From the IMG/VR virus record IMGVR_UViG_3300007735_000770, positions 1 through 60,971 of that record: 60,971 bases of DNA; one strand, given 5' to 3'. Made by a program: the position numbers and the translations under genes. The notes under the pieces are model-generated. The model was not told the DNA's origin. It ran no database searches and saw nothing but the letters and a program-made list of their open reading frames with translations. The stretch is from a virus. Taxonomy: Duplodnaviria; Caudoviricetes. Of this stretch, positions 7,560 through 55,351 are shown one piece after another. Position 1 is the stretch's first letter. Every line of letters begins with the position of its first letter.

Positions 7560-7709
7560 ACCTTCACCCCCATATATTCAAGCGTCTCCATGATCAGTTC
7601 TTCTGGCTCTTGGATGCCCATCGTCCAAGCTGGCCGGTTATTACGCAGCGCCTCCAAGAGCTTGGCTAGGCGCTTGGGGTCTTTGAGTTTCTTGGAGAGG
7701 GCGAGGTGT

Positions 7710-8255: not shown

Positions 8256-8295
8256 TCTTCCCCCTCCGCGATCTGCAGCAGGCAGTGGGCGATAC

Positions 8296-9045
8296 TTATC
8301 CAAACAACCTCCCGTTCAAATGCGGCCCTTTAACGCCGCTCCACGTTGAGGCGCTGGCGTGATGCTCGATGCGATCCGCCAGCACTAGCGCCCGAGTTTC
8401 CTTTGACTTCGGAACGTATGGCCCAGACCACCGTACATCGATGCCGATGTTTCGCGCGACGTTGGTTGAGTCTGCGGATGATAATGGGATCTGAGAAAAG
8501 ATCGTTGGGTCAAGCATACGCAGCCCGTGCAACTTGCATTTCGGTACACCTCCACCGTAGCAAGCCACTTCCATGATTTCAGTCATGCGGCCCCACCATT
8601 TATCGCTTCCTATTTCCCAATACTCGCCTGAAGAACCGATCGCCACACGCCGAAAGGTAACCGCTAGGTAATCCATTCTGCTCAGGCTTTCGTGCATGTG
8701 GTAAACAGGCACAGATTCAAACTGCTGGTTTTCACTCATCCATTGATCAAGTAGTTCGTCGTTTTCCGCCTCGGTGCCGTCGATCTTGTCCGGTACGAGG
8801 CACCAGTCAAAGCCAGGATGGTTGCACCATGTTGCAACCCACTCGCGATATGCACCAACGTCGATGTCGCCTTTTCCAGCGGTAAACAGCGGGTAAGCTC
8901 CATTATCGAGAGAAAAAGACTGGCATACCTCAGCGGCAATCTCAATTTGGTCTGGGTTAGCAAACGAGATCATGGCGTGACGACGGCTCCACGCGGCAAT
9001 AGCTGCTGTGCGTGGAGTGATTGGTCCTCCGTGGTAGTGAATCAC
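8296..9045 (-). CDS. TGT/DpdA-like TIM-barrel protein, putative base-exchange or DNA-modification enzyme
   Basis: LDNGAY, VPDKIDG, VPVYH, VAIGSS, KLHGLRM, SSADST follow the motif order of TGT/DpdA proteins. Confidence 0.55.
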   Translation of the reverse strand: MIHYHGGPITPRTAAIAAWSRRHAMISFANPDQIEIAAEVCQSFSLDNGAYPLFTAGKGDIDVGAYREWVATWCNHPGFDWCLVPDKIDGTEAENDELLDQWMSENQQFESVPVYHMHESLSRMDYLAVTFRRVAIGSSGEYWEIGSDKWWGRMTEIMEVACYGGGVPKCKLHGLRMLDPTIFSQIPLSSADSTNVARNIGIDVRWSGPYVPKSKETRALVLADRIEHHASASTWSGVKGPHLNGRLFG

Positions 9046-19953: not shown

Positions 19954-22656
19954 GTGCCACCACTGAAGAAAAAGAAAGCTGTCGTAGATCCAGACACGAG
20001 GGCGCGGCAATCACTCGCCGCGATGGAAGAGATTCAGCGGGCCATCAAGCAGAAGATCGGCACGCAGGCGCTGCACGATGCGGTCATGGGGTTGCCTGAC
20101 GATAAGCGCCGGATCGTGTTTGAGAAGATGGCGAAGCTGAAGGAACTGCAGACTCGCGATCGGTGCCGGTTGTTCTTCAAGGACTTCGTCAACGAGATGT
20201 GGCCGGGAAATATTCCAGGGCCGCATTTTGATGAACTGGAGAAGATCTTCCACCGTATAGATGCTGGTGAACCAGTGCGTGCGATCGTGTGCCTTCCGCC
20301 TAGGTTCGGTAAGGCGTTGGAGATAAACACTAAAATCCCCACTCCGTCTGGGTTTAAGCGAATTATTGATATCCAAGTAGGGGACGTAGTGTTTGGCGTC
20401 AACGGAAAGCCGACATTGGTTATAGGGAAGTCAGATGTGTTTAAGGACCGCAAGCTGTTCAAGTGCTCCACAAGTGATGGCTATTCAGTGCTCGCTGACA
20501 GCCAGCACGTTTGGACCGTGCGGAAAGATCGAAAAGCAAAAAAGTGGACGGATGAGTTGACTGAGGCGATTGCCAGCAGGCAAGCGGAGCGGATTCGCGT
20601 AAAGCAGAAAGAGTTGCGACCTCCGGCTTTGCCGCTATGGCAGGCGTGTGAGATGCCGCACCGGGATATGGAACTAGACCCATATGTATTGGGGGTGTGG
20701 TTGGGAGACGGAGGACAACACAACAACACCATTTCAAAATCAGCCCCTGACTCTGAGTTTATGATCCCTAAGATCAGGAGTCGCGGAGTCGACATCACCC
20801 CTCACACGGGAGAAAAAGGGTGGACTTTACGGGGGTGGAATGAGCCGCTTAGAAGATTAGGCTTAAAGTGTAACAAGCATATACCAGAGGAATATTTATT
20901 CTCCTCGATTGAGCAGAGAACGGATCTAGTGAACGGGCTGATGGATACAGACGGTGAAGTGCGACTAGACGGTTGCTCTGTCTTCTACACGACAAGCGAG
21001 CAAATGGCTACTCAGTTCGCTCGTATTGTCAATAGCTTAGGGAAGAAAGCATCGATATCGAGGAAGAAGTCTTTTTTTGAGGGAAGACAGTATAAAGACT
21101 GCTTCGCTGTTTGCTTTTATATGGCGAATAGTTGCTCGTTGCCACGGAAGAAAGTGCGAGCGAGAGACGCTGAGAGACAGATACATAGAATGCTTTTTTC
21201 TGAAGAGTGCGGTACTGGCGATACAGTCTGTATTGAAGTGGCCGCTAGTGATGGGCTATTTTTATGTGGTGAGAATTTCATCCCAACTCATAATTCAGAA
21301 CGCCTAAGTTATTTGTTCCCAGCGTGGTACATCGGCAAGCACCCAGAAAAGCACATCATTCAAGCGTCGAACGTCAAGTCGCTGGCTGAAGACTTCGGTG
21401 GTAAGATCAGAAACCTTGTCGACTCCGAGGACTACAAGAAGGTATTCCCTGGTGTATCGCTCGCCGCTGACTCGTCAGCCAAGGGTCGTTGGAACACGAA
21501 CAAGGGTGGGCGATACTTTGCGGTCGGCGCTGGCGGCACGGTGGTCGGGCGCGGGGCGCACCTTTTAATCCTGGACGATCCCATATCCGAGCAGGCTATC
21601 GTCAACCAAGGTGCTGCTAACCAGATGCCATCGAAGGAGGACTTCGAGAAGGTATATAACTGGTTCACCTCTATCCGTGGCCGTATTGAACCGGGTGGGT
21701 CGATCATCATCGTGATGCAGCGTTGGGCACCATTCGATCTCGTCGGCAGGTTGATGGATGACATGAAGGTCAAGCGAGACGGCGATCAATGGGAAATTAT
21801 CGAACTGCCAGCATTACTTGAGAAGACGGATGAGAACGGGAAGCAGGTACTTGACGCAGATGGACAGCCATCCTACGACTCTTTATGGCCGCAGAGATGG
21901 CCTGTCAGTGAACTACTGAAGCTGAAAGCCACGCTCCCGTCTTGGAAGTGGTACGCCCAGTACCTGCAAGACCCTAGGTCCGACGAGAGCGCCATCATCA
22001 AGCGCGAGTTCTGGAAAATATGGGGGCAGAGGAGTATCCGTAAGCAGGACGGATCGATCGAACTTGGGGAGATTGACCATAACCTTCCGCCGCCGAAGTG
22101 CGAGTACGTTATCCAGTCGTGGGACACAGCATATACCGCGAACACCCGATCCGACTACTCAGCTTGCGTGACGGTTGGCGTGTTCACCAGCACCAATGAG
22201 GACGGCAAGTCGATCTACAACGTCATCGTGCTGGATGCGCAGAAGTGGAAGTTGGAGTATTCGGACCTCAAAATTAAGGCGCTGGAGAAGTACAAGCAGT
22301 TCCAGCCTGACACCTGTATTATCGAAGCAAAGGCGGCTGGCCTGCCTCTGTTGAACGACATGCGGAAAATGGGGATACCGATGTCCGACTATACGCCGAC
22401 ATCGAGGACTGGTGATAAGCTATCCCGCGTGAACGCCATAAGCGACCTGTTCGCCAGCGGATATATATGGATACCGGCTCGGCATTGGGCTGAGGATCTG
22501 ATCGAGGAGTTCGCTCTTTTCCCGAACGGGGAGCATGATGACTTGGTCGACTCGATGACCCAGGCTTTGCTGCGGTTCCGCATGGGTGGGTTTATCCAAT
22601 CTAAGCTCGACGAGGAGGAGGAAGAGTACGCTCCAGTTGACCGCCAATACTATTAG
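19954..22656 (+). CDS. terL: Terminase large subunit containing an intein
   Basis: PPRFGK/S Walker A, LILDDP Walker B, QRW, SWDTA, HDDLVDSMTQAL nuclease motifs. Confidence 0.95.
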   Translation: MPPLKKKKAVVDPDTRARQSLAAMEEIQRAIKQKIGTQALHDAVMGLPDDKRRIVFEKMAKLKELQTRDRCRLFFKDFVNEMWPGNIPGPHFDELEKIFHRIDAGEPVRAIVCLPPRFGKALEINTKIPTPSGFKRIIDIQVGDVVFGVNGKPTLVIGKSDVFKDRKLFKCSTSDGYSVLADSQHVWTVRKDRKAKKWTDELTEAIASRQAERIRVKQKELRPPALPLWQACEMPHRDMELDPYVLGVWLGDGGQHNNTISKSAPDSEFMIPKIRSRGVDITPHTGEKGWTLRGWNEPLRRLGLKCNKHIPEEYLFSSIEQRTDLVNGLMDTDGEVRLDGCSVFYTTSEQMATQFARIVNSLGKKASISRKKSFFEGRQYKDCFAVCFYMANSCSLPRKKVRARDAERQIHRMLFSEECGTGDTVCIEVAASDGLFLCGENFIPTHNSERLSYLFPAWYIGKHPEKHIIQASNVKSLAEDFGGKIRNLVDSEDYKKVFPGVSLAADSSAKGRWNTNKGGRYFAVGAGGTVVGRGAHLLILDDPISEQAIVNQGAANQMPSKEDFEKVYNWFTSIRGRIEPGGSIIIVMQRWAPFDLVGRLMDDMKVKRDGDQWEIIELPALLEKTDENGKQVLDADGQPSYDSLWPQRWPVSELLKLKATLPSWKWYAQYLQDPRSDESAIIKREFWKIWGQRSIRKQDGSIELGEIDHNLPPPKCEYVIQSWDTAYTANTRSDYSACVTVGVFTSTNEDGKSIYNVIVLDAQKWKLEYSDLKIKALEKYKQFQPDTCIIEAKAAGLPLLNDMRKMGIPMSDYTPTSRTGDKLSRVNAISDLFASGYIWIPARHWAEDLIEEFALFPNGEHDDLVDSMTQALLRFRMGGFIQSKLDEEEEEYAPVDRQYY
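20314..21294 (+). mobile_element. Class 3-type intein (327 aa) with a LAGLIDADG endonuclease, inserted in the TerL Walker A motif
   Basis: Starts ALEINTKIPTP, ends THN before Ser; Trp in HVWTV, Cys in VCIEV, Thr in PTHN; LGVWLGDG and GLMDTDG. Confidence 0.9.
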
Positions 22657-36210: not shown

Positions 36211-37344
36211 ATCCCTTCTAGCTATACTTCCAACAACGGTATTATTCTACCAGCAACAGGCGAGAATAACAACACCTGGGGATCGCTTTGGAACTCAAGC
36301 GGTACCGAGCTAATCGACACCGCCCTCGACGGTGCTGTCTCCGTCACGCTCACCGGATCCACCCACTCGCTGGCGATCACTGATGGCACGGCGAGCGACG
36401 GGCGTAACCGCGTGCTGTTGTTCTCTGGGTCGCCGGGTGCTAATTGCACTGTCACGGTGACGCCGAACGATGCGGAGAAGTGGTACTTCGTATACAACGG
36501 CACATCGGGCGGCTTCTCCGTAATCATGGCTCAAGGTGGAGGGTCTGGGTCTACTGTCACGGTGGCGAACGGATACTGGGCGCTGGTGCGGCTGGACGGT
36601 ACCGGGTCGAATGCCAACGTGACGCGGCTGCTCGATAGCTGGGAGGTGACTACTGCGCTCAAGGCTGCTACGTACACTTCTGCCTCCACTCTGTCGATAA
36701 AGCCTGGAGCAGACTCGACAGCAGCTATCAGGCTTCAGAATTCGGCTGGAACACAGAAGGCCGCGCTAGACACAACCAACGGCAGGTTCATTATTGGAGC
36801 GACCACACCTGGATCTATATTTGAGGTGAACTCAAATACAGTTGCGGTGACTCCCGACCAGACGACGGACGTGAATATCGTTGGGTCTGACGCAGGTGCT
36901 GGCAATCGGGTGATGATCACTGGCTTCACTAATTCCGGCACGTATATCGGTAGGCTGGCGTCTGGGACTGGGGCGGCCCCCACTGCTGTGCAGAATATGG
37001 GATATCTATGCCAACTTCAAGGACGCGGATACCTTACGAGCACTTGGAGCAGCAGCCTTGGTCGCGTAGCCTTTGTGGCTGAAGAGAACTTCACGAACTC
37101 TACGGCCAAGACAGCCATCGCTTTTGAAGTCACGCCAGCCGGTGCTGTTACTTCGTCCGAGAAGATGCGCCTTACCGGGTCTGGGCAGCTTGAATTGTCG
37201 ACAACCACAGGTGGACTGCTAGTGCCGCGCCTGACTACCACGCAAAGAGATGCACTAACCCCGTCTAACGGGCTGGTCATCTACAACACCACAACCAACA
37301 AGTTCCAAGGGTATCAAGCAGGAGCTTGGGTTGATTTCGTATAA
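36211..37344 (+). CDS. Tail fibre-like protein with a probable non-canonical ATC start
   Basis: The frame is open 67 codons upstream of the tracked GTG and reads (I/M)PSSYTSNNGIILPATGENNNTWG; GAGGTG RBS; in-frame TAG at 36199. Confidence 0.7.
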   Translation: MPSSYTSNNGIILPATGENNNTWGSLWNSSGTELIDTALDGAVSVTLTGSTHSLAITDGTASDGRNRVLLFSGSPGANCTVTVTPNDAEKWYFVYNGTSGGFSVIMAQGGGSGSTVTVANGYWALVRLDGTGSNANVTRLLDSWEVTTALKAATYTSASTLSIKPGADSTAAIRLQNSAGTQKAALDTTNGRFIIGATTPGSIFEVNSNTVAVTPDQTTDVNIVGSDAGAGNRVMITGFTNSGTYIGRLASGTGAAPTAVQNMGYLCQLQGRGYLTSTWSSSLGRVAFVAEENFTNSTAKTAIAFEVTPAGAVTSSEKMRLTGSGQLELSTTTGGLLVPRLTTTQRDALTPSNGLVIYNTTTNKFQGYQAGAWVDFV

Positions 37345-37352
37345 GGAGAAGT

Positions 37353-37520
37353 ATGAACTGGAAAGCCATACTCAAAACCGTCGCCACTATTGGCGCTGCA
37401 ACCGTACTGACGACTGCTGGTGAAACAGTCGATCCAAACAAAAAGGTTAATGCCGAAAAGGCTGCGGCTGTCATCGTTGCCGTGGCCGCTTTGTTCGCCG
37501 AGAAGCCCACTAGAAAGTAA
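37353..37520 (+). CDS. Small protein with two hydrophobic segments, holin candidate (not in the ORF track)
   Basis: MNWKAILKTVATIGAATVLTTAG...AAAVIVAVAALFAEKPTRK; AAGGAG RBS; stop overlaps the next ATG. Confidence 0.55.
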   Translation: MNWKAILKTVATIGAATVLTTAGETVDPNKKVNAEKAAAVIVAVAALFAEKPTRK

Positions 37521-39340
37521 TGCTCCAGTCTCTCAAGCTCCGTCCAGGCATCACCAAGGACATCACTGACCTGTCAAACAGCGGCGGGTGGTATGACTCC
37601 GACAAGGTGCGTTTTAGGATGGGGTATCCGGAGACGATTGGCGGATGGCAGGCGTACACGTCCAATGAATTCCTTGGTGAATGTCGCGCACTGCATCAGT
37701 GGACCGCGCTTGACGGCACGAACTACACCGCTTACGGGACGAACCTGAAGCTGTACGTGGAGACGGGTGGTGACTACTACGACATCACCCCGATCCGCAG
37801 GACTGTCACGCTTGGAGCGAACCCATTCACCACGCAATCCACATCGAACGGGAAGTTGACCGTCACCGACGCGAGCAATGGCGTGGTGCTGCACGACTTC
37901 GTGACGTTCTCTGGCGCGACCGCGTTTGACAACTACACGACCGGGATGTTGAACGCTGAGTTTCAGGTGATCGAGGTGCTGACTTCCGGCACGTACACGA
38001 TCGAGGTGACTGGCGTTACGTCAGCATCGGCTGGTGTCAGCGGTGGTGGCGCGGCTGTGTCCGCTGCTTATCAGATCAACACTGGACCGGACACGCAGGT
38101 GTTTGGAACTGGGTGGGGTACCGGCACGTGGGGACGCGGAACGTGGGGGTCGGCTTCCAGTTCAGGCGTAAGCACTGGTCAGATCCGGATCTGGAGCCTT
38201 GATAACTTCGGCGAGGATCTGGTTGCCGCAGTGCGTGGTGGCAACATCTACTGGTGGGACGCATCGGTTGGGACTGGTACGCGAGCGATTGCCTTGGAGG
38301 ATATCCCTGGTTCAAATCAAGCACCGACCATTTGTTATGGGATCCAGGTTTCTGACGTGGATCGCCATCTTGTTGTCTTTGGCGCGAACGAGAACGGTGA
38401 AACCACTCAGGACTATTTGCTGGTCCGGTGGTGCAGCGCGGAAGACCTTACGGAATGGGAAGCCAATACCACGACCACGGCTGGATCGCAGCGGCTGTCA
38501 TCTGGCTCGCAGATCATTGGCTGGACGCGGGCGCGGCAGGAGATCCTGATCTGGACGGATGTTGGCTTGAACACGATGGCATTCACTGGGCCTCCGTATA
38601 CGTTTGGGTTCAATCTCATGGCCGAGGGGGTCTCGATCATGGGGCCGAACTCGATGGCGGAAGACAAGAATACCGTGTTCTGGATGGACCTAAATTCGTT
38701 CCGCATCTACGACGGGTCAGTGAACACTATTCCATGCCCAGTGCAGGCGTATGTGTTCGATAATCTTAACTTCGATCAGCGCTATAAAGTGTTCTGCGGA
38801 ACCAACTCCCGGTTTAACGAGGTGTGGTGGTTCTACCCTGCTGGGGCTTCAAATGAGAACAATCTGTACGTGGCATTCAACTACGTCGACAACACTTGGT
38901 TCATCGGGCAACTAGAGCGCACTGCGTGGTGGGATATGTCGTTCAACGGCTACCCGATAGCCACGTCCGATGGGACAACATGGACGCAGGAGTACGGGAC
39001 AAACGCTGGTGCATCTGCGTTGGAACCGTATATCGAGGGATCTGACCTGCAAATTGGCGATGGTGAACAGTTCTCGTTTATTACGCGCATCATCCCTGAC
39101 ATCACGTTCACTGGTGAAAACCAAACCCCGCTTGCTAACTATCTGATCCTCCGCCGCAACTTCCCTGGTCAGGACTTCACGACTGGCTACACGTCGACGG
39201 TATCAAATGATACTGAACAGAAGTTCGTGCGCGTGCGCGGGCGTCAGTTTGCCCTGCGCGTCGAGAGCAGTGAACCGAATCAGGCGTGGCGGCTAGGCGT
39301 GACGAGGTTTGACATGCAGCCGGATGGGAGGAAGACGTGA
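37520..39340 (+). CDS. Tail nozzle / DNA-stabilisation protein (P22 gp10-like)
   Basis: DKVRFR.G.PE.IGGW, WSLDNFGEDL, IPCPVQAYVF, FNEVWWFYP, RVRGRQ, DMQPDGR. Confidence 0.8.
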   Translation: MLQSLKLRPGITKDITDLSNSGGWYDSDKVRFRMGYPETIGGWQAYTSNEFLGECRALHQWTALDGTNYTAYGTNLKLYVETGGDYYDITPIRRTVTLGANPFTTQSTSNGKLTVTDASNGVVLHDFVTFSGATAFDNYTTGMLNAEFQVIEVLTSGTYTIEVTGVTSASAGVSGGGAAVSAAYQINTGPDTQVFGTGWGTGTWGRGTWGSASSSGVSTGQIRIWSLDNFGEDLVAAVRGGNIYWWDASVGTGTRAIALEDIPGSNQAPTICYGIQVSDVDRHLVVFGANENGETTQDYLLVRWCSAEDLTEWEANTTTTAGSQRLSSGSQIIGWTRARQEILIWTDVGLNTMAFTGPPYTFGFNLMAEGVSIMGPNSMAEDKNTVFWMDLNSFRIYDGSVNTIPCPVQAYVFDNLNFDQRYKVFCGTNSRFNEVWWFYPAGASNENNLYVAFNYVDNTWFIGQLERTAWWDMSFNGYPIATSDGTTWTQEYGTNAGASALEPYIEGSDLQIGDGEQFSFITRIIPDITFTGENQTPLANYLILRRNFPGQDFTTGYTSTVSNDTEQKFVRVRGRQFALRVESSEPNQAWRLGVTRFDMQPDGRKT

Positions 39341-44033: not shown

Positions 44034-45496
44034 ACCTCATCCAGCAGGCCGAAGAACTGAAGAACGTACCTGATCAGGCACTCGCCCAGATGTCGCAAGG
44101 GATGGGTAGCGTCCCGCCGTATCTCGTGATGAGCGAGATGAAGCGCCGCGAGCAAATGCGCAAAGCCTACACTGCGCAAAAAGGAGGTGATCCCGTTCAG
44201 CGGCGCACGGTCATGGAGGAGATGCGAGAGCGCTTCACTCCTATGGAGATGCAGCAGCAACAGCAGCAGCCTCAGGTCGGTCAGGTTGCGCCGAATGCGC
44301 CTGCTCCTAGGATGGCGGGGGGTGGGGTGGTTCGCCGCGACGGTGGTGGGGTGGTTAACCTGCAGGGGTTCTTTGATCAGTTGAAGGGCGCGTCAGCGTT
44401 GCCTGAAGTTGACCCGACTCACGTTGCATGGCAGATGCCGGGACAAGAGGCTATCCCGTTTTCCGAGGATGAGTTAGCCACAGCGCCAGACCGAATCGCG
44501 CAGCGGTATGGAAAAGCTCCAAGTATTGAAGAAACAATGAAGCAGGTGCAAGCGCTGCGCGGACCATCACGGCTTGCTGGTATCGCTGAGCAACTAGCCG
44601 CACGAGAGCAGGCGGCTCGCGGCAAGAAAGCAGACATCGGGCAGATCTTGATGCAACTTGGCCTTGGTATGGCAGCGTCTCGCCGTCCTGACTTCGCGGG
44701 TGCCATCGGTGAGGGTGGATTGGGCGCGTTGCACGGGTACATGCAGCAGAAGCAGTTGAATCAAGCACAGGCTGACAACTTCATGAAGCAGCGGCTGGGC
44801 GTGCTTGAGGCCATGCAACAAAGCGATGACGTTGCGACCCGTGAGGCTGGAGAGTTGAATCGCGGGAACATCGCTGGCAGAAACACGGAAATCATGGCTG
44901 GTGAGCAGGGCCGCACAGCAATGATGCGGGCGAAGAAAGACGAGCGAATAAATCAACTCAACCGCGAGGCGCAGGCGAAGATCGCGGCTGATAGGATCGC
45001 GGCTGAAGCGGCATTGGCTGATAAAAAAGAGGCTGGCGACTTTAAGGTTGATGAGGCGGCGATCAAATCATGGCTCCAGAAGCATCCAGACAAAGATTTT
45101 ATGGACGCGGTTGCCGTATTAACGCGAGCGAAGCATGTGCCAGAAAGCGGAAGTAAAGACAAAGACAAGTCCGATAACTTCTATCGCTTCATCAACGCCA
45201 ATAATGGAACAATCCAGGCCAATGAACGGGAGATCATTGAACTCCAAAAGGAACTCATTGACATGGGGCCTGGAACCAAGGGTGTGCCTGATCCCAAGCG
45301 AGAACTTATTGCGAATCGGATTAACGCCATTCGCCGTCACAACGACCGCATTCGACAGCAGACCGAAGAGTTGTATGCTGACTCAAAAGGGATTCCGATA
45401 GCCGAACCACCTCCCCGCCCAATACCCCCTCAGCGGAGGGGCGGATTGTCTGGGCTGAACCTGATGGGCGCGAGCGATCTATTTAAGGCCAAATGA
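44030..45496 (+). CDS. Internal virion / ejection protein
   Basis: VPPYLVMSEMKRR, LMQLGLGMAAS..FAGAIGEGG. Confidence 0.7.
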   Translation: MNLIQQAEELKNVPDQALAQMSQGMGSVPPYLVMSEMKRREQMRKAYTAQKGGDPVQRRTVMEEMRERFTPMEMQQQQQQPQVGQVAPNAPAPRMAGGGVVRRDGGGVVNLQGFFDQLKGASALPEVDPTHVAWQMPGQEAIPFSEDELATAPDRIAQRYGKAPSIEETMKQVQALRGPSRLAGIAEQLAAREQAARGKKADIGQILMQLGLGMAASRRPDFAGAIGEGGLGALHGYMQQKQLNQAQADNFMKQRLGVLEAMQQSDDVATREAGELNRGNIAGRNTEIMAGEQGRTAMMRAKKDERINQLNREAQAKIAADRIAAEAALADKKEAGDFKVDEAAIKSWLQKHPDKDFMDAVAVLTRAKHVPESGSKDKDKSDNFYRFINANNGTIQANEREIIELQKELIDMGPGTKGVPDPKRELIANRINAIRRHNDRIRQQTEELYADSKGIPIAEPPPRPIPPQRRGGLSGLNLMGASDLFKAK

Positions 45497-48400
45497 AAAA
45501 GCGCGTTTACTACCGTGGCTATGGGATCGTAGAGATTCCTGAAGGCGCAAGCCCAGAACAAATATGGGCCATTCTTGACGCAAAGAAAGCCAGCGAATCA
45601 GGCGAAGACCTGATGCCTGTGTTTGAGCAGCCAAGAAAGCCGGAAGAACCTGGGTTCCTGTCGCAAGTTGCCAAGAACGTCAAAGCTGGTGTCGCGGCGA
45701 TCCCGGGCGCGTTGATCAATACAGCCGCCGCATTGCCAGAGATGATCGGCGCTGTTACGGCTGGCGAGCCTGAGGCTGGTCCTGGATACGGCGCGAACGT
45801 AGGGCTGCATCAACTTTCAGCGCCTATGCTTGACGCGGCAAAGTTCATCCGCGATAACCCAGTGTCTAGGTATTTGTCAGAGGTACCACAAGACCAGAAG
45901 GATGATGCTGGCAACCCTGTGATTGGCAGGCAGATTGGCGACGTTGCTGGGCAAGTCGCGGGCATGATGATCCCAGGTGCAGCCGGGATGCGTGGGGCAA
46001 AAGCCTTGTCGTATATCCTTGGCGCATCACAGCAGGCTTCTCAGGTGCAGCAGGATGCTGACCGTAAGCGAGCAGCGGGGATGGCTATCGCGCCGGAAGA
46101 TTCCGCTGCTGCGGCGGTGGCTGCTATGCCATCGGCTGCTCTTGATGCTTTTAATATTGGCCGTATTGGTAGGTTTCTCCCTGGGTACGCCAAGCACGAG
46201 GCGTTGAAACAGGCTGCTGAAATCAGCGGTCAGTCGTATTTACGGCCAGCGCTGGAGACTGGCTTGTCGGCGCTCGGCGGGGCAGCGGTAGAGTCCGGTC
46301 AGCAGCTTGCTGCTAACGCCGCCATCAAGTCTACATACGATCCCGCACAGGCTTTAGATGAAGGACTGATGGATAACGCCATCGCGGGCGGCGGAGCAGA
46401 TGCCGGTCTTGAACTGATAAACCAGATTCTTTTGCGCAAGACGGCTAAGAACATCCACACCCGTCGCCAAAATATAGCCGCAGAACGCGCCCGCCAATCC
46501 GCCCCCGAAGTTCTACCGGGTGACGAGGAAGCGATCGGGATTCGGTCGCAGATGGATGGCACGCCGGAAGTGAAGTATGTGCAGCAGCGCAGGCCGACTC
46601 GCAACGAAATTCTGGACGAGTTGTCTCTTGGGTTGTATGGCAAGCCGCTGTCTGAGTTGGACGCGCAGCGCGGGATGCACCTCGATCGCAGCTATGAAGA
46701 CCTGCGCAAGATGGGTATGTCTGATCAAGAGGTGATTGACCACCTGACGCAGCCGATAGATCTTGCGCCCGATCCGGTGCAGCGTCCTACCCCAGGCCTG
46801 CCAACCGCACTGCCACCCGACGCACCGCCAGTTCGCCTGACCGACGAAGGCGCTATCGACGCAAGCGCCGTTCAGTACCCGTCGTTCCTTGACCAGATCA
46901 TGGCGCAGGAGCCTGCTCTGTATGAGCGGCTGCAGGGGCAGGATGTCGTCAATAGCTTGTTGGCAAACCCGTCAGAGCCTCGCGGCGTCACTCCCAACAA
47001 GCCAAGACCAAAGCCGCCAGTACAAAACGCTATCCTCACGGACGAAGGCGCTATCGCCACCGACCAGCAACCCACTGAGATCCGACGAGAAGGCATCCGC
47101 CCGATGCCGACGAGGGAGCAGATCATTGCTGAGGCTACCGCTGCTCGCCAGCAAGCCGAACAACTCAAATCACAGCGCCGCGCAGAAGCCGACGCCATTC
47201 GCCTCCAGAAAAAGCAGTCGCAAGTAACCGTACCCGAAACTGGCATCGCCAACGAGCGTGACGCCGATGCACGGCAGCGCGTTAGCCGTGAACTCTTTGG
47301 CCGCAACTTCGATCAACTCACCCCAGAGCAGATCACTGAGGTCGACAGCTATCGCGCCGAAGGTTTGGGCGAGGCGGTGCAGCCGCAAGAGATCGCTGAG
47401 ATCAACGAGTTCGCTGACCTGCCGTTCAGTCGCGACCAGTATCGGTCAGCACTGGAGGTTGGGCGCGCGGCTGGAGTTAACACAAGGCCGGTCAGCATGA
47501 CGGCAGTAGCGAAGCAAGCGAAGGTCAAGCCAGAGGTCGCCACCCAGATCATCAACCACATGGTGACTCGTGGCGATGCTCAGTTGATTGACGGTAAGGT
47601 GATCGTTGATCCGACTGCGATGGGGCCTCGCTACAACCTCGGCCAACCCACCCCATCCCCCAACACCGTAGCCTCGCAACGCCAACTGCTCGAAGAAGGC
47701 AAGCAGTCAGAACTAGCGAACAGCATCTTCGGCGAGATGCAGCGCTTGGGCGTCGATGACATCGTGTCTACCCGGCTCGTCGACAACCTCAAGGTCCAGC
47801 CGAATGCCAAGGGATCCTACGCCAACCAGATCATCTCGCTGGCTATGGCGGTGCAGGATCCGAAGGCCATGAAGGAGACACTACATCACGAGGCAGTCCA
47901 CGCCATGAAGGCGATGGGCTTGTTTAACGATGCTGAGTGGAACATCCTTCAAGGCGCGTTGAACCCCAACAGCGTTCTCTCCGACGACGAGCGCCGCCAG
48001 TATGGTGAGATTTATGGAGACCGGCCAGACATCATCCAGGAAGAAGCGATCGCTCGCGGCCTGGAGCGCTACATGGCGGGGCAACTTTCGCTCGATGGGC
48101 CAGCGAAAGACATTGCCGCACAGAAGATGTCTACGTTGCAGCGCATCGGAAATGCGTTCAAGTCGAACAACATGCAGTCGCCAGCCGATGTCGCTTCGGC
48201 GTTTAAGAGTGGCGAGATTGGAAGAAGGGAAGGCAACTATGCCGTCAATAACGCGGTCGCAAATGACCAAGCAGGTGTCGATACCGAACGGCGCATCAGT
48301 GCGGAAGCCGGGACCACGCAAGACATCCCAGCCGTCGATGCCGCGAAAGCCACGGAAGCCGTAGATCAGTACGACATCAGGGCTTGGCTGACGGATACGG

Positions 48401-50931
48401 ATGATAGCGGGGAAGTGAAGCCGACAACCGAACAGCGGATGTCAGTCCAACAACTCCCCGTCAACGGTCGCATATTCGCCGAGCCAGACAGCCGCAGTCA
48501 GCTCCGAAAGCAGATCGACGAACTGAAGTCTGGCGCTACGCCTGGGGCGCTCGGTGGCGCTGGACTATCGCTTCGCCAGCAAGCGCTCGACGCGAGGGCA
48601 GGGATCGAGAAGCTGTCGCAGCAAGTTGGCACGGCGACAAATGCCAAGGTCGGATCGATCCCTGCTGTCCGTGCGGCTGACGTGTCCAGCGAATACGCTT
48701 CTGCTGCACTGAAGAACGGTGGGCTTGAGTTCGTCGGCACTCCCGGCAATGGATACTTCCGCGCTAAGAAAGACGGTCCTGCTCCGTTTGGCAAGGATGG
48801 TTTTTTCACCAAGGCGTACAATAACGGCAAGCTCGACCGAGTGTTCCATTACATTGCTGGTAAGCGAGGCCAGGAACTAATGGCGCAGGGCCGCGAAAAG
48901 TTGATGACGCCGCAGCAGATTGCTGAGTACGTCAACTACGGCAATGATGCTGAAGTGCGAGATGCGGCGCAGCAGTGGAAGCAGTTCAATGACAGCGTCG
49001 TCGATGCAGTGCAAGCGTCTGGACGTATCGATGCCGCCACCGCTGCCGACTGGAAGGCGAAGACGTACCTGCCGTTTTATCGCGTTGACCCTGACACCGG
49101 GGCAGTCACAGCGCAAGGGCCTGGGGCGTTGAGCGGAACCGGAAATATTCAGAAATTAAAAGGTAGCACTCGCGAGATCGCCGATCCTATTGAGAACATC
49201 GTTCGCAACGTCAACGCACTCACGTCCATGGCGATGAAGAACGAAGCCATGCAGCGTGTGGCTCGCGATGGGATGCAGATGGGGTACATGAAGCAGGCGC
49301 AAAAAGGATCGCCTGCCAAAAACCAAGTCACGCTGTACGTCGACGGCAAGCCTAAGAAGTTTGTCATCACTGATCCAATTCTTTACGAGTCTGTCACCGC
49401 CTCACGGATACCAGCCAGTACTGTGATGAAACTTGCCGCGATGCCGGGAAACTTCCTGCGCGAGTCTGTCACCCTCTTTCCTGCCTTCATGGTGCGCAAC
49501 ATGCTTCGCGACTCGATGATGGTGTGGGCGCAGGGATACACGCCGGTCCCATTCGCCAACATTGCAGCCGATGCGACCAAAGCACTAAAGGAAGCCGAGT
49601 CGTTCAAGAACTTGGAGCGCCTTGGCGTAGTCGATGCAGGGATCCGTGGTGATGGCGGCGCTGGCGGTACTGCCGCCAACATCAGAGGACTGATGGACGG
49701 ACCAACAAAGAACCCGCTGAAGTGGTTCCAAGATAAGTCCAAGAAGTCGGAAGCGGCGAACCGCATCACCGTCTTTGAATCCGTCATGAAACGCACTGGC
49801 GGCGATGAGGCGCAGGCTGCTTTCGAGGCGCGGGAACTACTGAACTTCAACCGTCGCGGGGCCAGTCCGATCGCGCAGGTACTCACCGCTATGACGCCGT
49901 TCCTTAACGCCCGGTGGCAGGGGTTGGATGTGGCGTATCGGTCGGCTATGGGCAAGGGCGCTAATCCGCAGATGAAATCTCAAATGCTTCGCCGTGCTGC
50001 GTACCTCGGAGCGCTATCTACGATCTACGCTGCGCTTGTCAGCCAACTCCCTGCATGGCAGAATGCCACCCCTGAGGAGCGCGACAACAACTGGTTTGTG
50101 CCGACTGGTGATGGCGAAGCGGTGAAGGTGCCGATTCCATTTGAGTTTGGCTTTGTGGCTAAGGTTTTGCCTGAACGGTTTGTGGCGGCTGCGATGGGGA
50201 ATGAGGAGTGGACTGAAGCACTCAGTTCGTTTGATCGCTTCCTGCGTGGAAATATGAAACTCGACATGCCTCACGTTATCAACCCGGTGTACGAGGTCAG
50301 CAACAACATGGACCGATTCCGTGGGCGAGAGATCGAGCAGCCGTGGATGCGGAAGCTGGATAAGGACTACCGCTACGATGAGAACACCAGCGAGTTAGCG
50401 AAGGAGGTGGCGCGGTACAGCAGTCTCTCCCCAGTCCAACTAGACCACATCCTGCGTGGGTACCTCGGCACTAGCGCCATGTACGCTGTAAATCTCGCTG
50501 ACGTGCTGGCTGGCCCAGACCCGACCGGAACAGTAGCCGACATCCCTGACCGCAAACTCAGCCAGATGCCGGTATTCGGCAGCATGTTCCAGCGCGAAGA
50601 CGGCGCTCGCAAGCTGCTTGAGTTCTACGAGATCCGCAACGTAGCCGAGCAAGCCAAGAACACCCTGTCTATGCTGGCAAAGTCCAAGACGCCAGCCGAA
50701 GAAGGCGACCGCGAGCGTCTGAACAAAGCAGCGAAGGTTGAGACTGCGACACGCGCTACCGACAAGCGCATGAGTGACATGACCAAAGTGGAGCGGCAAG
50801 TACGTGGCGACATCAAGGCTGGGAATATAACGCCAGCGCAAGGGCGCAAGGTACTCGAAGAATTACGCAAGCGGAAGCTAGAGTTGGCCGCGCCGGTCAT
50901 CGAGCGCTACAAAGACGCCATCAAGCCATAG
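45493..50931 (+). CDS. Large polyvalent injected protein with an HExxH zincin-like domain and an LPD38-like C-terminus
   Basis: LHHEAVH..EEAIA; YLPFYR; RNMLRD; SEAANR; NFNRRG; PFLNARWQG; VPIPFEFG; SPVQLDHILRGY. Confidence 0.8.
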   Translation: MKKRVYYRGYGIVEIPEGASPEQIWAILDAKKASESGEDLMPVFEQPRKPEEPGFLSQVAKNVKAGVAAIPGALINTAAALPEMIGAVTAGEPEAGPGYGANVGLHQLSAPMLDAAKFIRDNPVSRYLSEVPQDQKDDAGNPVIGRQIGDVAGQVAGMMIPGAAGMRGAKALSYILGASQQASQVQQDADRKRAAGMAIAPEDSAAAAVAAMPSAALDAFNIGRIGRFLPGYAKHEALKQAAEISGQSYLRPALETGLSALGGAAVESGQQLAANAAIKSTYDPAQALDEGLMDNAIAGGGADAGLELINQILLRKTAKNIHTRRQNIAAERARQSAPEVLPGDEEAIGIRSQMDGTPEVKYVQQRRPTRNEILDELSLGLYGKPLSELDAQRGMHLDRSYEDLRKMGMSDQEVIDHLTQPIDLAPDPVQRPTPGLPTALPPDAPPVRLTDEGAIDASAVQYPSFLDQIMAQEPALYERLQGQDVVNSLLANPSEPRGVTPNKPRPKPPVQNAILTDEGAIATDQQPTEIRREGIRPMPTREQIIAEATAARQQAEQLKSQRRAEADAIRLQKKQSQVTVPETGIANERDADARQRVSRELFGRNFDQLTPEQITEVDSYRAEGLGEAVQPQEIAEINEFADLPFSRDQYRSALEVGRAAGVNTRPVSMTAVAKQAKVKPEVATQIINHMVTRGDAQLIDGKVIVDPTAMGPRYNLGQPTPSPNTVASQRQLLEEGKQSELANSIFGEMQRLGVDDIVSTRLVDNLKVQPNAKGSYANQIISLAMAVQDPKAMKETLHHEAVHAMKAMGLFNDAEWNILQGALNPNSVLSDDERRQYGEIYGDRPDIIQEEAIARGLERYMAGQLSLDGPAKDIAAQKMSTLQRIGNAFKSNNMQSPADVASAFKSGEIGRREGNYAVNNAVANDQAGVDTERRISAEAGTTQDIPAVDAAKATEAVDQYDIRAWLTDTDDSGEVKPTTEQRMSVQQLPVNGRIFAEPDSRSQLRKQIDELKSGATPGALGGAGLSLRQQALDARAGIEKLSQQVGTATNAKVGSIPAVRAADVSSEYASAALKNGGLEFVGTPGNGYFRAKKDGPAPFGKDGFFTKAYNNGKLDRVFHYIAGKRGQELMAQGREKLMTPQQIAEYVNYGNDAEVRDAAQQWKQFNDSVVDAVQASGRIDAATAADWKAKTYLPFYRVDPDTGAVTAQGPGALSGTGNIQKLKGSTREIADPIENIVRNVNALTSMAMKNEAMQRVARDGMQMGYMKQAQKGSPAKNQVTLYVDGKPKKFVITDPILYESVTASRIPASTVMKLAAMPGNFLRESVTLFPAFMVRNMLRDSMMVWAQGYTPVPFANIAADATKALKEAESFKNLERLGVVDAGIRGDGGAGGTAANIRGLMDGPTKNPLKWFQDKSKKSEAANRITVFESVMKRTGGDEAQAAFEARELLNFNRRGASPIAQVLTAMTPFLNARWQGLDVAYRSAMGKGANPQMKSQMLRRAAYLGALSTIYAALVSQLPAWQNATPEERDNNWFVPTGDGEAVKVPIPFEFGFVAKVLPERFVAAAMGNEEWTEALSSFDRFLRGNMKLDMPHVINPVYEVSNNMDRFRGREIEQPWMRKLDKDYRYDENTSELAKEVARYSSLSPVQLDHILRGYLGTSAMYAVNLADVLAGPDPTGTVADIPDRKLSQMPVFGSMFQREDGARKLLEFYEIRNVAEQAKNTLSMLAKSKTPAEEGDRERLNKAAKVETATRATDKRMSDMTKVERQVRGDIKAGNITPAQGRKVLEELRKRKLELAAPVIERYKDAIKP

Positions 50932-51547
50932 GCTCGGCCACGCCAATCCATCCCAATACCCTGCCGTTCGATGACATCGAATGTGCTTTCAGTCTCACTG
51001 GAACAATCACCCCATCTGAGGCAATATAGCGGGCGGCAAGGTTAAAGTCAGCGCCTTCGCTAACGACCCGCGCCCACTCGCTGAACACCCGGTTGGCATC
51101 GTCTGGGTGAATAAAGTTCTTCCAGTTGCTGCCCAGGATCTCGCCCTCGCCCATCTTCAGCAACTCGCACAACTCAGAGTTCGCCGCTGTGCATCTGCCG
51201 TTTGAGTCCGACTCCCACCCTGCCACGCCAGCCGCCATCTTCCATCGCGTCTGGTGCCTCACGTCGATGCGGACTATCGAGTCGCCAAGTTCATCAATCT
51301 TCCGTGCTGTACGGTCAATAGCATCCCTTAAACTGCTACCCCCGTTCGGCTTCACTTCTTTCAGAAGGGCATCGAATCGATCGGGTAGCGCATTCAATCG
51401 TTCAATTGCTTTAGCGATCTGGTAAACCATACGGGCATATCTCCAAACTGCTGGAGCGATTTTTGTCGCCACTAACACGGCGGTTGCGGCGAACAGATAG
51501 ACAGTCGGGTGAGCATCCTTCAGATGTGCAATCACCATACCGCTCAT
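50921..51547 (-). CDS. Membrane-anchored protein with a C-terminal PAS domain
   Basis: Hydrophobic N-terminus, KPNGGSSLRDAIDR, then WESDSNGRC..AN..C, G.NW..FIHPDD, GRVLGWIG. Confidence 0.85.
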   Translation of the reverse strand: MSGMVIAHLKDAHPTVYLFAATAVLVATKIAPAVWRYARMVYQIAKAIERLNALPDRFDALLKEVKPNGGSSLRDAIDRTARKIDELGDSIVRIDVRHQTRWKMAAGVAGWESDSNGRCTAANSELCELLKMGEGEILGSNWKNFIHPDDANRVFSEWARVVSEGADFNLAARYIASDGVIVPVRLKAHSMSSNGRVLGWIGVAEPMA

Positions 51548-51632
51548 TATTATCTATAATCACCACTTGACCTAATCTACCATTGGGTCGCAGAAAGCTA
51601 TAGACTTTTCCTCTGGAATTTGGGATAAGCGG

Positions 51633-52469
51633 CTATTTCAACATCTCCGCCATGGCGTTTGATGCGTTGCGGGTGAAGTCGGGGGCCAGCTTCATGTACA
51701 CGCGCTCGGTTATCGCCGTGGATGAATGCCCGAGCAATCGCGATACCTCCAAGACAGGGACTCCATTGGAGATAAGATGGCTGGCGACTGAATGCCGCAT
51801 CGTATGCGGCACCGCGCCATCAATCCCCGCCAACTTGCAAGCCTTCTTCCACTGCCAAACGAACCGATCCCGCGAGATCATCTCCCCTTCATTGGTGATT
51901 ACGTAGCGCGGCGACTTGCCACGGCACTCGTCCAGTATCACCTTGATCGCTGGCGTAACCGGGATCACCCCGCGCCGCTTGTGACGCCGCGACATGCCGA
52001 TGTTGAAGTCAATCACTCCGTGCTGGATCTGCTCCCACTGGAGCGTCAGAACGGCAGTGATCCGTTGCCCGGTGAGAAACGACAGGTTTAGCACCCAGTC
52101 GAACCAGATCGGCACGTCTACACGCCGCCCCACCTCCAGCAACTTCTGCATCTCCTCCTTCGTCAGCCACCGCTGCCTGGGCTTCGACTCCGCTGGCGTC
52201 TTCCACTTCGGCGTCTCCGCGATCAGCTTCTGGTCGAGCAGCCACTTGGAAAACACCGACAGATCGGCCAGCGACCGGCGTACCGTCGACGCGGAGTAGG
52301 TTTTCAGTAGTCTGGCAATCTCCTTACCCACGGCCTCGCTCGTAAACTGCTTCGGCGCGAGCTTATGCAGCCCAGTGAACTGCTTCCAACTCGTCGTCGC
52401 GCGGCGACCGCAGATCACCTTGTCGTTATGCTGTCGCCACCAGATTTGGTAGTGGTCGGTGAGAGTCAT
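51633..52469 (-). CDS. int: Tyrosine recombinase / integrase, short form without an arm-binding domain
   Basis: TGQR, K, HTMRH, LGHS, RVY catalytic residues. Confidence 0.92.
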   Translation of the reverse strand: MTLTDHYQIWWRQHNDKVICGRRATTSWKQFTGLHKLAPKQFTSEAVGKEIARLLKTYSASTVRRSLADLSVFSKWLLDQKLIAETPKWKTPAESKPRQRWLTKEEMQKLLEVGRRVDVPIWFDWVLNLSFLTGQRITAVLTLQWEQIQHGVIDFNIGMSRRHKRRGVIPVTPAIKVILDECRGKSPRYVITNEGEMISRDRFVWQWKKACKLAGIDGAVPHTMRHSVASHLISNGVPVLEVSRLLGHSSTAITERVYMKLAPDFTRNASNAMAEMLK

Positions 52470-52671
52470 GGCTTTATTCCTAATACTGCCTTCAGGTCTA
52501 GGTCTACATACGGATACGAATATATCGTGAACCCGCCATTAAACGGCGGTATTGTTATCGGGGTGCTTACCGTCATCGTGTACTTCTTTGGCACCATCAC
52601 TATGGCGGTGCGTGTCGCCACCGGCATAGCCACCGCGAATCCAGTAGCAGCTTTCATGAATGAGCGGCGGG

Positions 52672-52923
52672 TCATGGCTTGCATCCCCGCAACAGCACAA
52701 ACTCCTTCGCTGCCTCCAGCACCCACTCCACCGCAACGATATCCGGGTCGGTAATCTTGTACGTCTTCAGCAAACCAAGCATATTCGACGCATCGTGGAT
52801 CGCCTTCTTGATGTCGGTCCCACACGGGTTGGACCTGTATGCGCTGGCCTCTTTATTCAGGCGCTGGATGTCGTCCTCCAGCCGGTTAATGTAGCGGATG
52901 AGGATTTCGTTAACGGGTGTCAC
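52672..52923 (-). CDS. Hypothetical protein
   Basis: Coherent ORF in the early cluster. Confidence 0.5.
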   Translation of the reverse strand: MTPVNEILIRYINRLEDDIQRLNKEASAYRSNPCGTDIKKAIHDASNMLGLLKTYKITDPDIVAVEWVLEAAKEFVLLRGCKP

Positions 52924-54385: not shown

Positions 54386-54844
54386 TTACAGTTCTCCCAT
54401 CGCGACTCTCAATTTAGCCAAAGCCTTAGACTTCAGCCTTGAATAGTAAGCCTCGGTCGTACCCATGATCCTCGCGGCTTCGGATTGCGGAGTCTCGTCC
54501 CAATAGCACGCTTGCAGTACCGCCAATTCCTTCGCCGTCAAAACATCGACCGCCCGTCGCAGCCGTACGCGCACTTCGGAATCCAAGGCTATGCGCTCTT
54601 GCCTCGGTTCTCCGGTCGGCATCCACCAAATCGTTTGCAGGCATTGGCGGCGTGTCCCGCGTGATCCCGGATTGCAGCGGCGCAGGTATCCGATGATGGC
54701 CCGCTTGGCGGCAATTACTTCGCAGCCTTCACGCGCTTGCAAGGCACCAAGTACGGCCTCGCTGGTGATGTCGTCAAGCTCGTTTCCGGGTGGAAGTCCG
54801 CGCCAAATGAAATAAGCGAGGCGCTTGATACGCTCCATCACCAC
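54386..54844 (-). CDS. Compact sigma70-family factor (FliA/ECF-like regions 2 and 4)
   Basis: ELDDITSEAVLGALQA, AIIGYLRR, LTAKELAVL..CYW...QSEAARIMG.TEAYYSRL..KALAKLR. Confidence 0.8.
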   Translation of the reverse strand: MVMERIKRLAYFIWRGLPPGNELDDITSEAVLGALQAREGCEVIAAKRAIIGYLRRCNPGSRGTRRQCLQTIWWMPTGEPRQERIALDSEVRVRLRRAVDVLTAKELAVLQACYWDETPQSEAARIMGTTEAYYSRLKSKALAKLRVAMGEL

Positions 54845-55150
54845 ACCCCCACCGCATGAAGGATCGTGCCTAGGCCAAGCGTTAGGCAGATGCCGAGAGA
54901 CGCCCAGCGCTGGTTGTCGTCTACCCAGTCATCGATCCACACGCAGATGCCGATGGTGGCGACGATCAAGCCGCAGATCACGCTGCATACCGCGCCCATC
55001 ACAGCACCCCCAACGCGCGGAGGATGGTGATGAGGCCGAGAACAGAAGCAGTTCCGCCTGATATGCGCTTATCCTCTGCGATCACCGATATGCCGCCGAC
55101 GAACAGCATGAAGCCGCTCAGGCCCACACAAATCCGAACCAAAATATCCG

Positions 55151-55351
55151 TCATCCTTCTCTCCTTTTAAACCGCTTCTCCGCCAACACAAACACCCGCG
55201 TAGCCTTGACGTAGTAGGACCGGACGATCCCGGCCTTCTCAAGCCGGACCAGCGTTGTGTGTACGTTGGGGGCCTTCTTGCCTGATCGCCGCGCCACCTC
55301 GGAAGCCGTCCCCGGTAGGTGCGACGTTAAGAACAACTGCTTCAGTGTCAT
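55151..55351 (-). CDS. Winged-HTH protein
   Basis: TASEVARRSG..APNVHTTLVRLEKAGIV. Confidence 0.7.
   Translation of the reverse strand: MTLKQLFLTSHLPGTASEVARRSGKKAPNVHTTLVRLEKAGIVRSYYVKATRVFVLAEKRFKRREG

Follow-up and report, generated by a model that had tools for sequence, protein, structure and literature searches.

The locus

The stretch of DNA analysed here, called the window below, is IMG/VR virus record IMGVR_UViG_3300007735_000770 (Duplodnaviria; Caudoviricetes) over its full length of 60,971 nucleotides. The first 127 bases of the record are identical to its last 127, and IMG/VR classes it under direct terminal repeats, 100% complete; the window therefore represents the complete genome, approximately 60.8 kb long, of an uncultured temperate phage. 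Our subject is one of its genes, P0001, which specifies a small protein with a predicted membrane anchor and a C-terminal PAS domain. The gene and its immediate surroundings are as follows.

50921–51547, minus strand: membrane-anchored PAS protein P0001, 208 aa, ATG start, stop codon included
51548–51632, no strand assigned: A+T-rich spacer of 85 nt between the integrase and the PAS gene, A+T 60% versus 44% for the genome
51633–52469, minus strand: tyrosine integrase [PF00589, E 2.7e-23; phrog_1, E 1.9e-45], upstream of the PAS gene and co-directional with it
45493–50931, plus strand: last gene of the late operon, 1812 aa with an LPD38 domain, convergent with the PAS gene and overlapping it by 11 nt

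The late operon occupies the plus strand from the large terminase gene (19954) to the 1812-aa virion protein which ends at 50931. The first-pass annotation, made from the sequence alone, was right in setting the PAS gene between the end of this operon and the integrase, behind an AT-rich spacer. The true start of P0001 may be M4, that is, position 51538, because the homologues P0002, P0004 and P0007 begin at the matching residue. A promoter and terminator search of the minus strand of the spacer gave neither a sigma-70-like site nor a terminator, and the spacer has no 11-mer in common with the rest of the genome or with its other intergenic regions.

Architecture of P0001

The protein is composed of four parts.

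51446–51502, minus strand: transmembrane helix, residues ~16–34; best 19-residue window, mean Kyte-Doolittle 1.81; predicted N-out/C-in
51323–51358, minus strand: invariant block E64-x-x-P67NGGSSLRD75, predicted to be cytoplasmic, ~33 residues past the transmembrane helix
51233–51337, minus strand: helical stalk, residues 71–105, leading from the motif to the PAS domain; helix in the structure model, 43% charged over residues 76–105
50930–51226, minus strand: PAS domain (PAS_3 type), residues ~108–206; C-terminal, without an output domain (Pfam, NCBIfam and structure model)

By hydropathy residues 16–34 are the sole strongly hydrophobic stretch of P0001. One lysine or arginine precedes this transmembrane (TM) helix and three follow it, and more of these residues after the helix than before it were also counted in 31 of the 32 family representatives with a clear TM segment; the short N-terminus is therefore predicted to lie outside, and the motif and PAS domain in the cytoplasm. 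The sequence KPNGGSSLRDAIDR occupies residues 66–79, and residues 48–88 match phrog_9869 [E 3.3e-7], a family without known function. The first ~105 residues thus form a module made up of a TM helix, a basic flank, a helix, the PNGGSSLRD turn and a charged helix.

An AlphaFold2 (AF2) model, built on 21 family members, consists of a long helix (14–65), a break at 66–70 which corresponds to the PNGG turn and is the only one in the N-terminal part, a second helix (71–105) and the PAS fold (110–206). Its confidence, expressed as the predicted local distance difference test (pLDDT), exceeds 90 in the PAS part and is low, at 50–60, in the N-terminal part (50–56 for the TM helix). A profile of the N-terminal module matched only de novo designed helical proteins in PDB, and these matches were taken as spurious.

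The C-terminal half was identified by Pfam as PAS_3 (PF08447) over residues 122–204, with a score of 53.5 bits (cut-off 25.6) [E 2.9e-14]; PAS_4, PAS and PAS_9 likewise reached their cut-offs, as well as TIGR00229 [E 3.2e-8]. In the AF2 model strands 110–114, 119–122, 168–175, 181–193 and 196–206, with helices between them, make up the five-stranded antiparallel PAS sheet, and Foldseek aligned it with many solved PAS domains in PDB at probability 1.00 and target TM-scores of up to 0.83. The relatives found by Foldseek and by profile are generic, at 13–20% identity: LOV, ARNT PAS-B, FixL, Aer and the PAS domain of a GGDEF protein, the PDB profile matches including 3nja, ARNT and the Aer PAS domain (8dik). 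Phmmer against PDB with the P0001 sequence itself gave no match. BFVD holds uncultured-phage proteins of the same overall shape which are named simply “PAS domain,” and matches of P0001 to long signalling proteins are restricted to the PAS part. As in Aer and other membrane-tethered PAS sensors, a cytoplasmic PAS domain is held at the membrane; P0001 differs from the Aer type in that it carries neither HAMP nor a signalling output, its PAS domain is C-terminal to the anchor, and no signature of binding to flavin adenine dinucleotide was established.

P0001 ends 2–4 residues past the PAS domain, and Pfam and NCBIfam matched PAS families only, with no kinase, GGDEF, EAL or helix-turn-helix (HTH) family. 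The hydrophobic N-terminus, the conserved motif and the terminal PAS domain without an output domain, all read from the bare sequence in the first-pass annotation, are thus borne out by hydropathy, Pfam and AF2. Searching each half by profile returned PAS_3 for the C-terminal half and phrog_9869, not a holin family, for the N-terminal half. The best holin match in P0001 is phrog_15431 at E 0.37, in which no stretch passes alone, and Pfam matched no holin. The PADLOC models matched no defence family in P0001.

A family of phage proteins with anchor, motif and PAS domain

A word-indexed protein search (300 candidates, cut-off E up to 0.001) yielded 25 homologues of 146–245 aa, all of which possess the PAS domain; two of them carry a name in their source, merely “PAS domain S-box-containing protein.” Although identity to P0001 falls to 24%, E64 and P67–D75 are invariant in all 21 aligned members. 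Five PAS positions are also invariant across this alignment, and the short motif is its best conserved part.

The pattern was also scanned against viral contigs, where 336 stretches with relatives were found and the best 80 of the 336 were kept, and, as the single pattern PNGGSSLRD, against cellular genomes, one genome each for 185,579 species. The cellular genomes contained eight relatives at six loci, all of them short forms and none of the eight fused to PAS. Altogether 84 target proteins fell into 42 clusters at 60% identity. Most of the 84 measure 184–280 aa and have the order TM helix, motif, helix and PAS domain. The N, second G, second S and D of the motif are unvaried in the 40 cluster representatives compared (40/40); variants among the targets include PNHGSSIKD, PNSGTSLKD, PNGGGSLRD and PNGGNSLRD. 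We conclude that P0001 belongs to a conserved, phage-specific family of anchor-motif-PAS proteins, which is common in environmental viral contigs. The PAS-fused form has no description in the literature searched.

None of three queries detected a PAS-fused member in 50,697 isolated-phage records, so that no cultured carrier is at hand. Scanning the viral contigs with P0001 alone returned nothing, nor did a short-protein search with residues 1–100 or a protein atlas search with residues 1–105. Some carriers encode Rz-like spanins, and because of this their hosts are probably Gram-negative. A tree of 40 N-terminal modules left 21 of its 37 inner branches open and does not decide whether the PAS fusion had a single origin. 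In L021–L024 the family member was called as a 338-aa open reading frame (ORF) with an Arg/Pro/Ser-rich extension of ~135 residues ahead of the TM helix; the extension probably arises from an ORF called too long in GC-rich DNA and is unlikely to be a genuine domain.

The stand-alone module in actinophages

The TM-plus-motif module also occurs without PAS, in proteins of 87–89 aa from viral contigs L071, L080, L082 and L084 and in proteins of 122–172 aa from actinobacterial genomes. These stand-alone PNGGSSLRD proteins (phrog_9869) resemble P0001 in possessing the TM helix, the E..PN[GS]GSSLRD block and the helix; they differ in ending 15–70 residues past the motif, with no PAS domain, and annotation labels them membrane protein, hypothetical or holin. 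On sequence grounds we regard them as the true family of the N-terminal half of P0001. Tblastn with the Amycolatopsis form retrieved 21 isolated-phage records, named “membrane protein” in GenBank and “holin” in RefSeq, the Arthrobacter phage members included. Their gene orders, with that of the Amycolatopsis prophage, are exemplified by the following.

Streptomyces phage mu1/6: endolysin gp50, holin gp51, module gp52
Streptomyces phage TurkishDelight: endolysin gp35, holin gp36, module gp37
Arthrobacter phage Mufasa8: module gp22, metallo-endopeptidase, hypothetical protein, holin gp25, peptidase, integrase
Amycolatopsis prophage L003: module, endolysin, holin
Arthrobacter phage Laroye: module gp72 after minor tail genes, endolysin ten genes further on

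The first-pass annotation had associated the motif with small phage membrane proteins near lysis genes, and for actinophages this proved correct (mu1/6, TurkishDelight and Mufasa8). No DUF2746 gene was found in the four actinophages carrying the module which were inspected (0/4), which is consistent with the module filling the slot that DUF2746 holds elsewhere. Tblastn with the Actinosynnema module gave a weak match (E 0.3) on the DUF2746 gene of Streptomyces phages Izzy, Rusticus and phiScoe23.

Two of 16 module proteins, both 87–89-aa modules, showed weak matches below the cut-off to Pfam Saf_2TM, the membrane effector domain which is fused to SAVED in the cyclic-oligonucleotide-based anti-phage signalling system (CBASS): L082:5588-5851 at E 4.7e-4 and L071:7951-8220 at E 0.15.

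The distribution of the module bears upon the suggestion that P0001 is a decoy which forms heterodimers with the PAS domains of host sensor kinases or cyclases and so jams signalling. The absence of an output domain would suit such a protein, as would a PAS domain of the common PAS_3 type, closest to those of multi-PAS bacterial signalling proteins. However, conservation is highest in the membrane-proximal PNGGSSLRD module, not in the PAS domain, the stand-alone module in lysis cassettes would be left unexplained, and there is no host from which a target could be named. We consider a decoy very improbable.

Comparison with LysF1b, LysA2b and other lysis proteins

LysF1b (Girr gp35, NormanBulbieJr gp33) is described by Pollenz et al. 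(PMC13056207) as a protein of 124 aa with one N-terminal transmembrane domain (TMD), predicted N-out/C-in, in which basic residues past the TMD are followed by an extended charged helix. The same text reports that deletion of lysF1b results in a severe lysis defect, that LysF1b supports triggering by energy poisons, and that HHpred matches it to Pfam DUF2746 (PMC13056207). The authors of the LysF1b work place such proteins mainly in phages of Gram-positive hosts. The homologue from D29, LysA2b (gp30), is encoded among minor tail genes and well away from the genes of lysin A and lysin B, an arrangement common to all cluster A phages; its deletion nevertheless causes severe lysis defects (bioRxiv 10.64898/2026.08.27.747656). 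In those phages the time of lysis is set by the one-TMD protein, which presumably acts by switching on a small partner with two TMDs. Pham-mates of LysF1b include Ms6 gp27 and Waterfoul gp32; the Pfam entry for DUF2746 is PF10874. The Girr gp35 sequence was obtained through the accession given in PMC11075535.

Girr gp35 possesses one N-terminal TMD, then ...EQTVNTHDTNMRDDLDEI, and DUF2746 phage and prophage proteins read ...QVANTHSTNLRDDLD, which in two Streptomycetales prophages lies ~25 residues past the TMD. At the matching place P0001 reads ...KEVKPNGGSSLRDAID, in a longer stretch ...KEVKPNGGSSLRDAIDRT..., and mu1/6 gp52 reads ...ELHPNSGSSLRDAVNRIE... at its motif. When PNGGSSLRDAID is set against N-T-H-x-T-N-[LM]-R-D-D-[LIM]-D, L-R-D and a later D are held in common, and the variants PNHGSS and PNSGSS partly bridge the remainder.

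Profile comparison by hhalign of 40 modules with 37 DUF2746 proteins gave P 0.0023 at a score of 22.6 with the motifs in register, as they also were when Girr gp35 was the sole target (P 0.013). A thinned DUF2746 set to which Girr and Kalpine had been added gave P 3.2e-4, score 26.6 and probability 39%, again in register. The corresponding controls scored 13.5 and 15.0 for reversed alignments, at most 15.0 in 30 column shuffles and at most 17.7 in 40 shuffles.

P0001 and LysF1b/LysA2b resemble each other in a single N-terminal TMD, predicted N-out/C-in, with basic residues after it; in a helical cytoplasmic part in which a polar turn is followed by [LM]-R-D-x-[LIV]-D, 25–34 residues past the TMD; and, less clearly, in the setting of their genes, which may belong to a lysis cassette or else sit with tail genes towards the end of the late operon and beside an integrase, as with Kalpine gp33 and D29. 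In Kalpine (cluster A) the DUF2746 gene, gp33, is situated where the tail operon ends, with the integrase two genes away, and in two Streptomycetales prophages (from 2 of the 201 genomes searched) DUF2746 genes lie between a tail-fibre gene and an amidase. There are also differences. The motif of P0001 is PNGGSSLRD, not NTH.TN[LM]RDD, and is predicted to break the helix. Its charged stalk leads into a globular PAS domain of ~100 residues at the C-terminus and not into a free tail, and such a domain is absent from the DUF2746 proteins examined. Finally, LysF1b-type proteins belong mainly to phages of Gram-positive hosts, whereas carriers of the P0001 family with Rz-like spanins probably infect Gram-negative ones. 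The analogy to LysF1b has good support as to predicted topology and the place of the motif and, on the whole, as to genomic setting; homology of the anchor-motif module to LysF1b/DUF2746 is likely, though not established.

Holin T of T4 (class III), which acts with the antiholin RI, provides a conceptual parallel, being a one-TMD protein of ~200 residues whose soluble domain receives a lysis-delaying signal. Its topology is N-in with a large periplasmic domain according to PMC13056207, opposite to that predicted for P0001, and the two proteins showed no relation in sequence. In T4 the signal originates outside the cell, but the predicted sensor of P0001 faces the cytoplasm.

Candidate lysis genes and small membrane proteins of the phage

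The following genes of the window may be pertinent to lysis.

7710–8303, minus strand: GH73 (glucosaminidase) endolysin candidate [PF01832, E 6.7e-12; endolysin PHROGs, best E 8.5e-13]
54838–55154, minus strand: two small ORFs of 54 and 51 aa (54838–55002 and 54999–55154), each with two hydrophobic helices in a TM scan

The GH73 gene, which also lies beside replication genes, is the only recognised lysis gene in the genome, and no holin or spanin PHROG was matched anywhere in it; there is consequently no lysis cassette from which the PAS gene could be said to be absent. A clear TM segment is present in four ORFs only, namely P0001, the 54-aa and 51-aa ORFs with two TMDs each, and a small ORF near 9.5 kb. 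A genome with a GH73 enzyme, no recognised holin or spanin and so few membrane proteins was counted in favour of a lysis role for P0001.

The 54-aa and 51-aa ORFs sit between an HTH protein and a sigma-70 region-4 protein, and their overlaps of 4–7 nt with each other and with these neighbours suggest translational coupling. Neither has a PHROG or other family match. From their sequences they could be holin-like or exclusion proteins, and by analogy with LysF1a they might be the two-TMD partners of P0001.

Gene neighbourhoods

The census of neighbourhoods covered 233 genes within three positions of the target at 41 representative loci (all 42 clusters except that of the 910-aa L077). Lysis genes were counted by best PHROG, and a tape-measure protein with only a secondary endolysin-labelled match was left out. 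Eight of the 41 loci (L003, L009, L036, L048, L050, L057, L063 and L066) have a lysis gene within three genes, nine such genes in all. As background, 150 random genes at least five positions away at the same loci included one lysis match, an endolysin ~1.3 kb from the L085 target. Small TM ORFs are more frequent close by, 15 of 152 within two genes versus 23 of 602 at least four genes off (odds ratio 2.8, p 0.006); these counts come from rough gene calls and from hydropathy only.

Two viral contigs, L007 and L008, are syntenic with the late operon of the window (32–68% protein identity), and their PAS gene is 47–50% identical to that of P0001. There it lies inside the late operon, on the same strand, between the homologues of 36412–37344 and 37520–39340, and its stop overlaps the start of the next gene; the PAS gene must therefore be late in these two phages. 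The slot is occupied in the window by a small ORF.

37353–37520, plus strand: 55-aa ORF in the position of the L007/L008 PAS gene by synteny, with two weakly hydrophobic Ala/Gly/Thr-rich segments

We rejected this ORF as a remnant of the PAS gene, there being no similarity to P0001.

A role in the virion might be imagined from such positions, P0001 being an assembly or tail-associated protein which anchors, for example, a tail or fibre assembly step at the membrane. The gene adjoins tail spike, fibre or virion genes in L007, L008, L060, L069 and L082 and the end of the virion operon in the window, and the annotations “minor tail protein” and “tail needle protein” occur among DUF2746 genes. Yet many family members are far from tail genes, and we know of no role in tail assembly for a cytoplasmic PAS domain on an N-out/C-in membrane protein. 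Position among tail genes is in any case uninformative, because LysA2b of D29 sits there and is a lysis regulator by deletion analysis. A virion role is improbable.

P0001 might instead be an accessory membrane PAS protein of the “moron” type with no part in lysis, made together with the integrase or in the lysogen and sensing the state of the host for the lysis-lysogeny decision or induction, for superinfection exclusion or for interference with the host membrane. In the window the leftward arm closes with the PAS gene, which directly follows the integrase on the same strand, and the A+T-rich spacer could hold a promoter of its own; the place of the gene differs between syntenic phages, its relatives turn up in widely varying contexts, as accessory genes commonly do, and the homology to LysF1b is weak. 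Against this, most carriers appear to be lytic or large, with the gene among replication or structural genes and not beside integrases, and in L007 and L008 it is within the late operon. G+C content at third codon positions (GC3) is 0.61 for the PAS gene, like the other genes of the phage among 28 measured and not that of an imported island; it is the integrase which stands out at 0.80, the highest of the 28, the others ranging from 0.49 to 0.76. Nor was there a PADLOC defence family, and the position of the stand-alone module in lysis cassettes would go unexplained. On balance we hold an accessory role to be rather unlikely, though it is the main rival to a role in lysis.

A candidate lysis regulator with a putative intracellular sensor

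The time of lysis largely sets the burst size and fitness of a phage. Known inputs to the lysis clock are holin concentration and membrane potential and, in the T-even phages, superinfection sensed in the periplasm. We estimate at roughly 0.5 the probability that P0001 is a LysF1b-like lysis regulator with one TMD and a cytoplasmic PAS sensor. Its first ~105 residues are most likely a phage-specific module distantly related to LysF1b/LysA2b, and at the least their topological and positional analogue. The first-pass annotation had proposed a holin or antiholin gated by a PAS ligand; the lysis part of that proposal gains from the cassettes and from the motif register with LysF1b, whereas identity as a holin or antiholin found no more than the phrog_15431 match, and gating by a ligand no cofactor signature.

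Several observations weigh against the assignment to lysis. As regards the relationship with LysF1b, the hhalign probabilities lie between 12 and 39%, and deletion of the ten motif columns from both alignments left a score of 17.6 (P 0.011) in place of 26.6; the register was kept but the best shuffle was not surpassed, and the case for homology is therefore largely one short motif plus a shared topology. Pfam DUF2746 (cut-off 23 bits) was unmatched at E up to 10 by P0001, by its N-terminal 107 residues, by the whole genome and by all 16 family members searched (0/16). AF2 renders a DUF2746 protein as a continuous helix whose sole irregularity is a dip in confidence at the motif, where P0001 has a Pro-Gly-Gly break, and 37% of residues 35–105 of P0001 are charged (43% of 76–105) versus 54% in Girr gp35, a share of 30–50% or more DEKRH being characteristic of the cytoplasmic part of LysF1b-type proteins. 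The fold and PDB profile searches of the PAS domain gave no cofactor or ligand signature.

The genomic evidence pulls in the same direction. Near homologues of P0001 the first-pass annotation had expected lysis genes; these adjoin the stand-alone module, but 33 of the 41 loci, mostly of PAS-fused forms, have no recognised lysis gene within three genes, their neighbours being ribonucleotide reductase, terminase, portal, PhoH, tail fibre or unknowns. The excess of lysis genes, 9/233 near the target versus 1/150 in the background, is marginal (one-sided p 0.049, two-sided 0.096), and any association of the PAS-fused forms with lysis genes is weak and real at best in part; many holins are missed by PHROGs. 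In the window the PAS gene abuts the end of the late operon on the opposite strand, behind the integrase on the early/lysogeny strand, and neither the promoter search of the spacer nor the 11-mer comparison revealed a late promoter for it. The GH73 gene and the PAS gene are separated by 43 kb along the record, or by ~18 kb if counted through the terminal repeat; distance from the lysin is not decisive, because D29 LysA2b is encoded far from its lysins.

P0001 is predicted to span the inner membrane once, its N-terminus, which is very short, lying outside and the remainder in the cytoplasm. If it is a LysF1b-like regulator, it would accumulate in the membrane late in infection. The PAS domain might bind a ligand or cofactor, or might dimerise differently, as the redox, energy or metabolite status of the cell changes. 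Its state would control either oligomerisation of the membrane module or the engagement of a small membrane partner, and the module would then set the moment of permeabilisation and of access of the GH73 enzyme to the wall.

Host physiology would in that case have a direct route, through a single protein, by which to set lysis time, and lysis would respond to an intracellular signal (redox, energy state or a metabolite) in addition to holin accumulation and membrane potential. The class of LysF1b and LysA2b, which was defined only recently, would moreover reach beyond actinophages. That the 336 relatives in viral contigs reflect a widespread class of lysis regulators with a built-in intracellular sensor, in which a LysF1b-like module known so far from actinophages passed into phages that infect other bacteria, some of them probably Gram-negative, and was fused to PAS, is possible, though we advance it tentatively. 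Should the link to lysis fail, the family would still be one of conserved membrane PAS proteins specific to phages, with nine motif residues that do not vary.

Other features of the genome

In the 1812-aa virion protein (45493–50931) the LPD38 (large polyvalent protein associated) domain was located at residues 1521–1694. Proteins of 1137 and 488 aa, without family matches, precede it, and together the three may represent internal or ejection proteins of the podovirus type. The large terminase ORF (19954–22656, plus strand) is unusually long at 900 aa; terminase PHROGs match both of its halves, and its residues 101–332 also match a DnaC-like helicase-loader PHROG.

The GH73 gene is flanked, in the minus-strand region 6765–9045, by a queuine tRNA-ribosyltransferase-like gene [phrog_887, E 9.6e-64] and a gene resembling 3'-phosphoadenosine 5'-phosphosulfate (PAPS) reductase [phrog_424, E 4.2e-30]. 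These genes hint at a DNA modification module of the 7-deazaguanine type, queuine and PAPS reductase-like genes being presumably linked to DNA modification.

Just upstream of the integrase the minus-strand ORF 52466–52825 has the lowest GC3 of the 28 genes (0.49); the integration module may have been acquired recently, as judged from the GC3 of the integrase. An internal Met in this ORF is followed by a twin-arginine-like signal, MTRRSFMKAATGFAVAMPVA, which Pfam TAT_signal matches at E 0.016, below its cut-off, and the product may be a small protein of ~70 aa destined for export.

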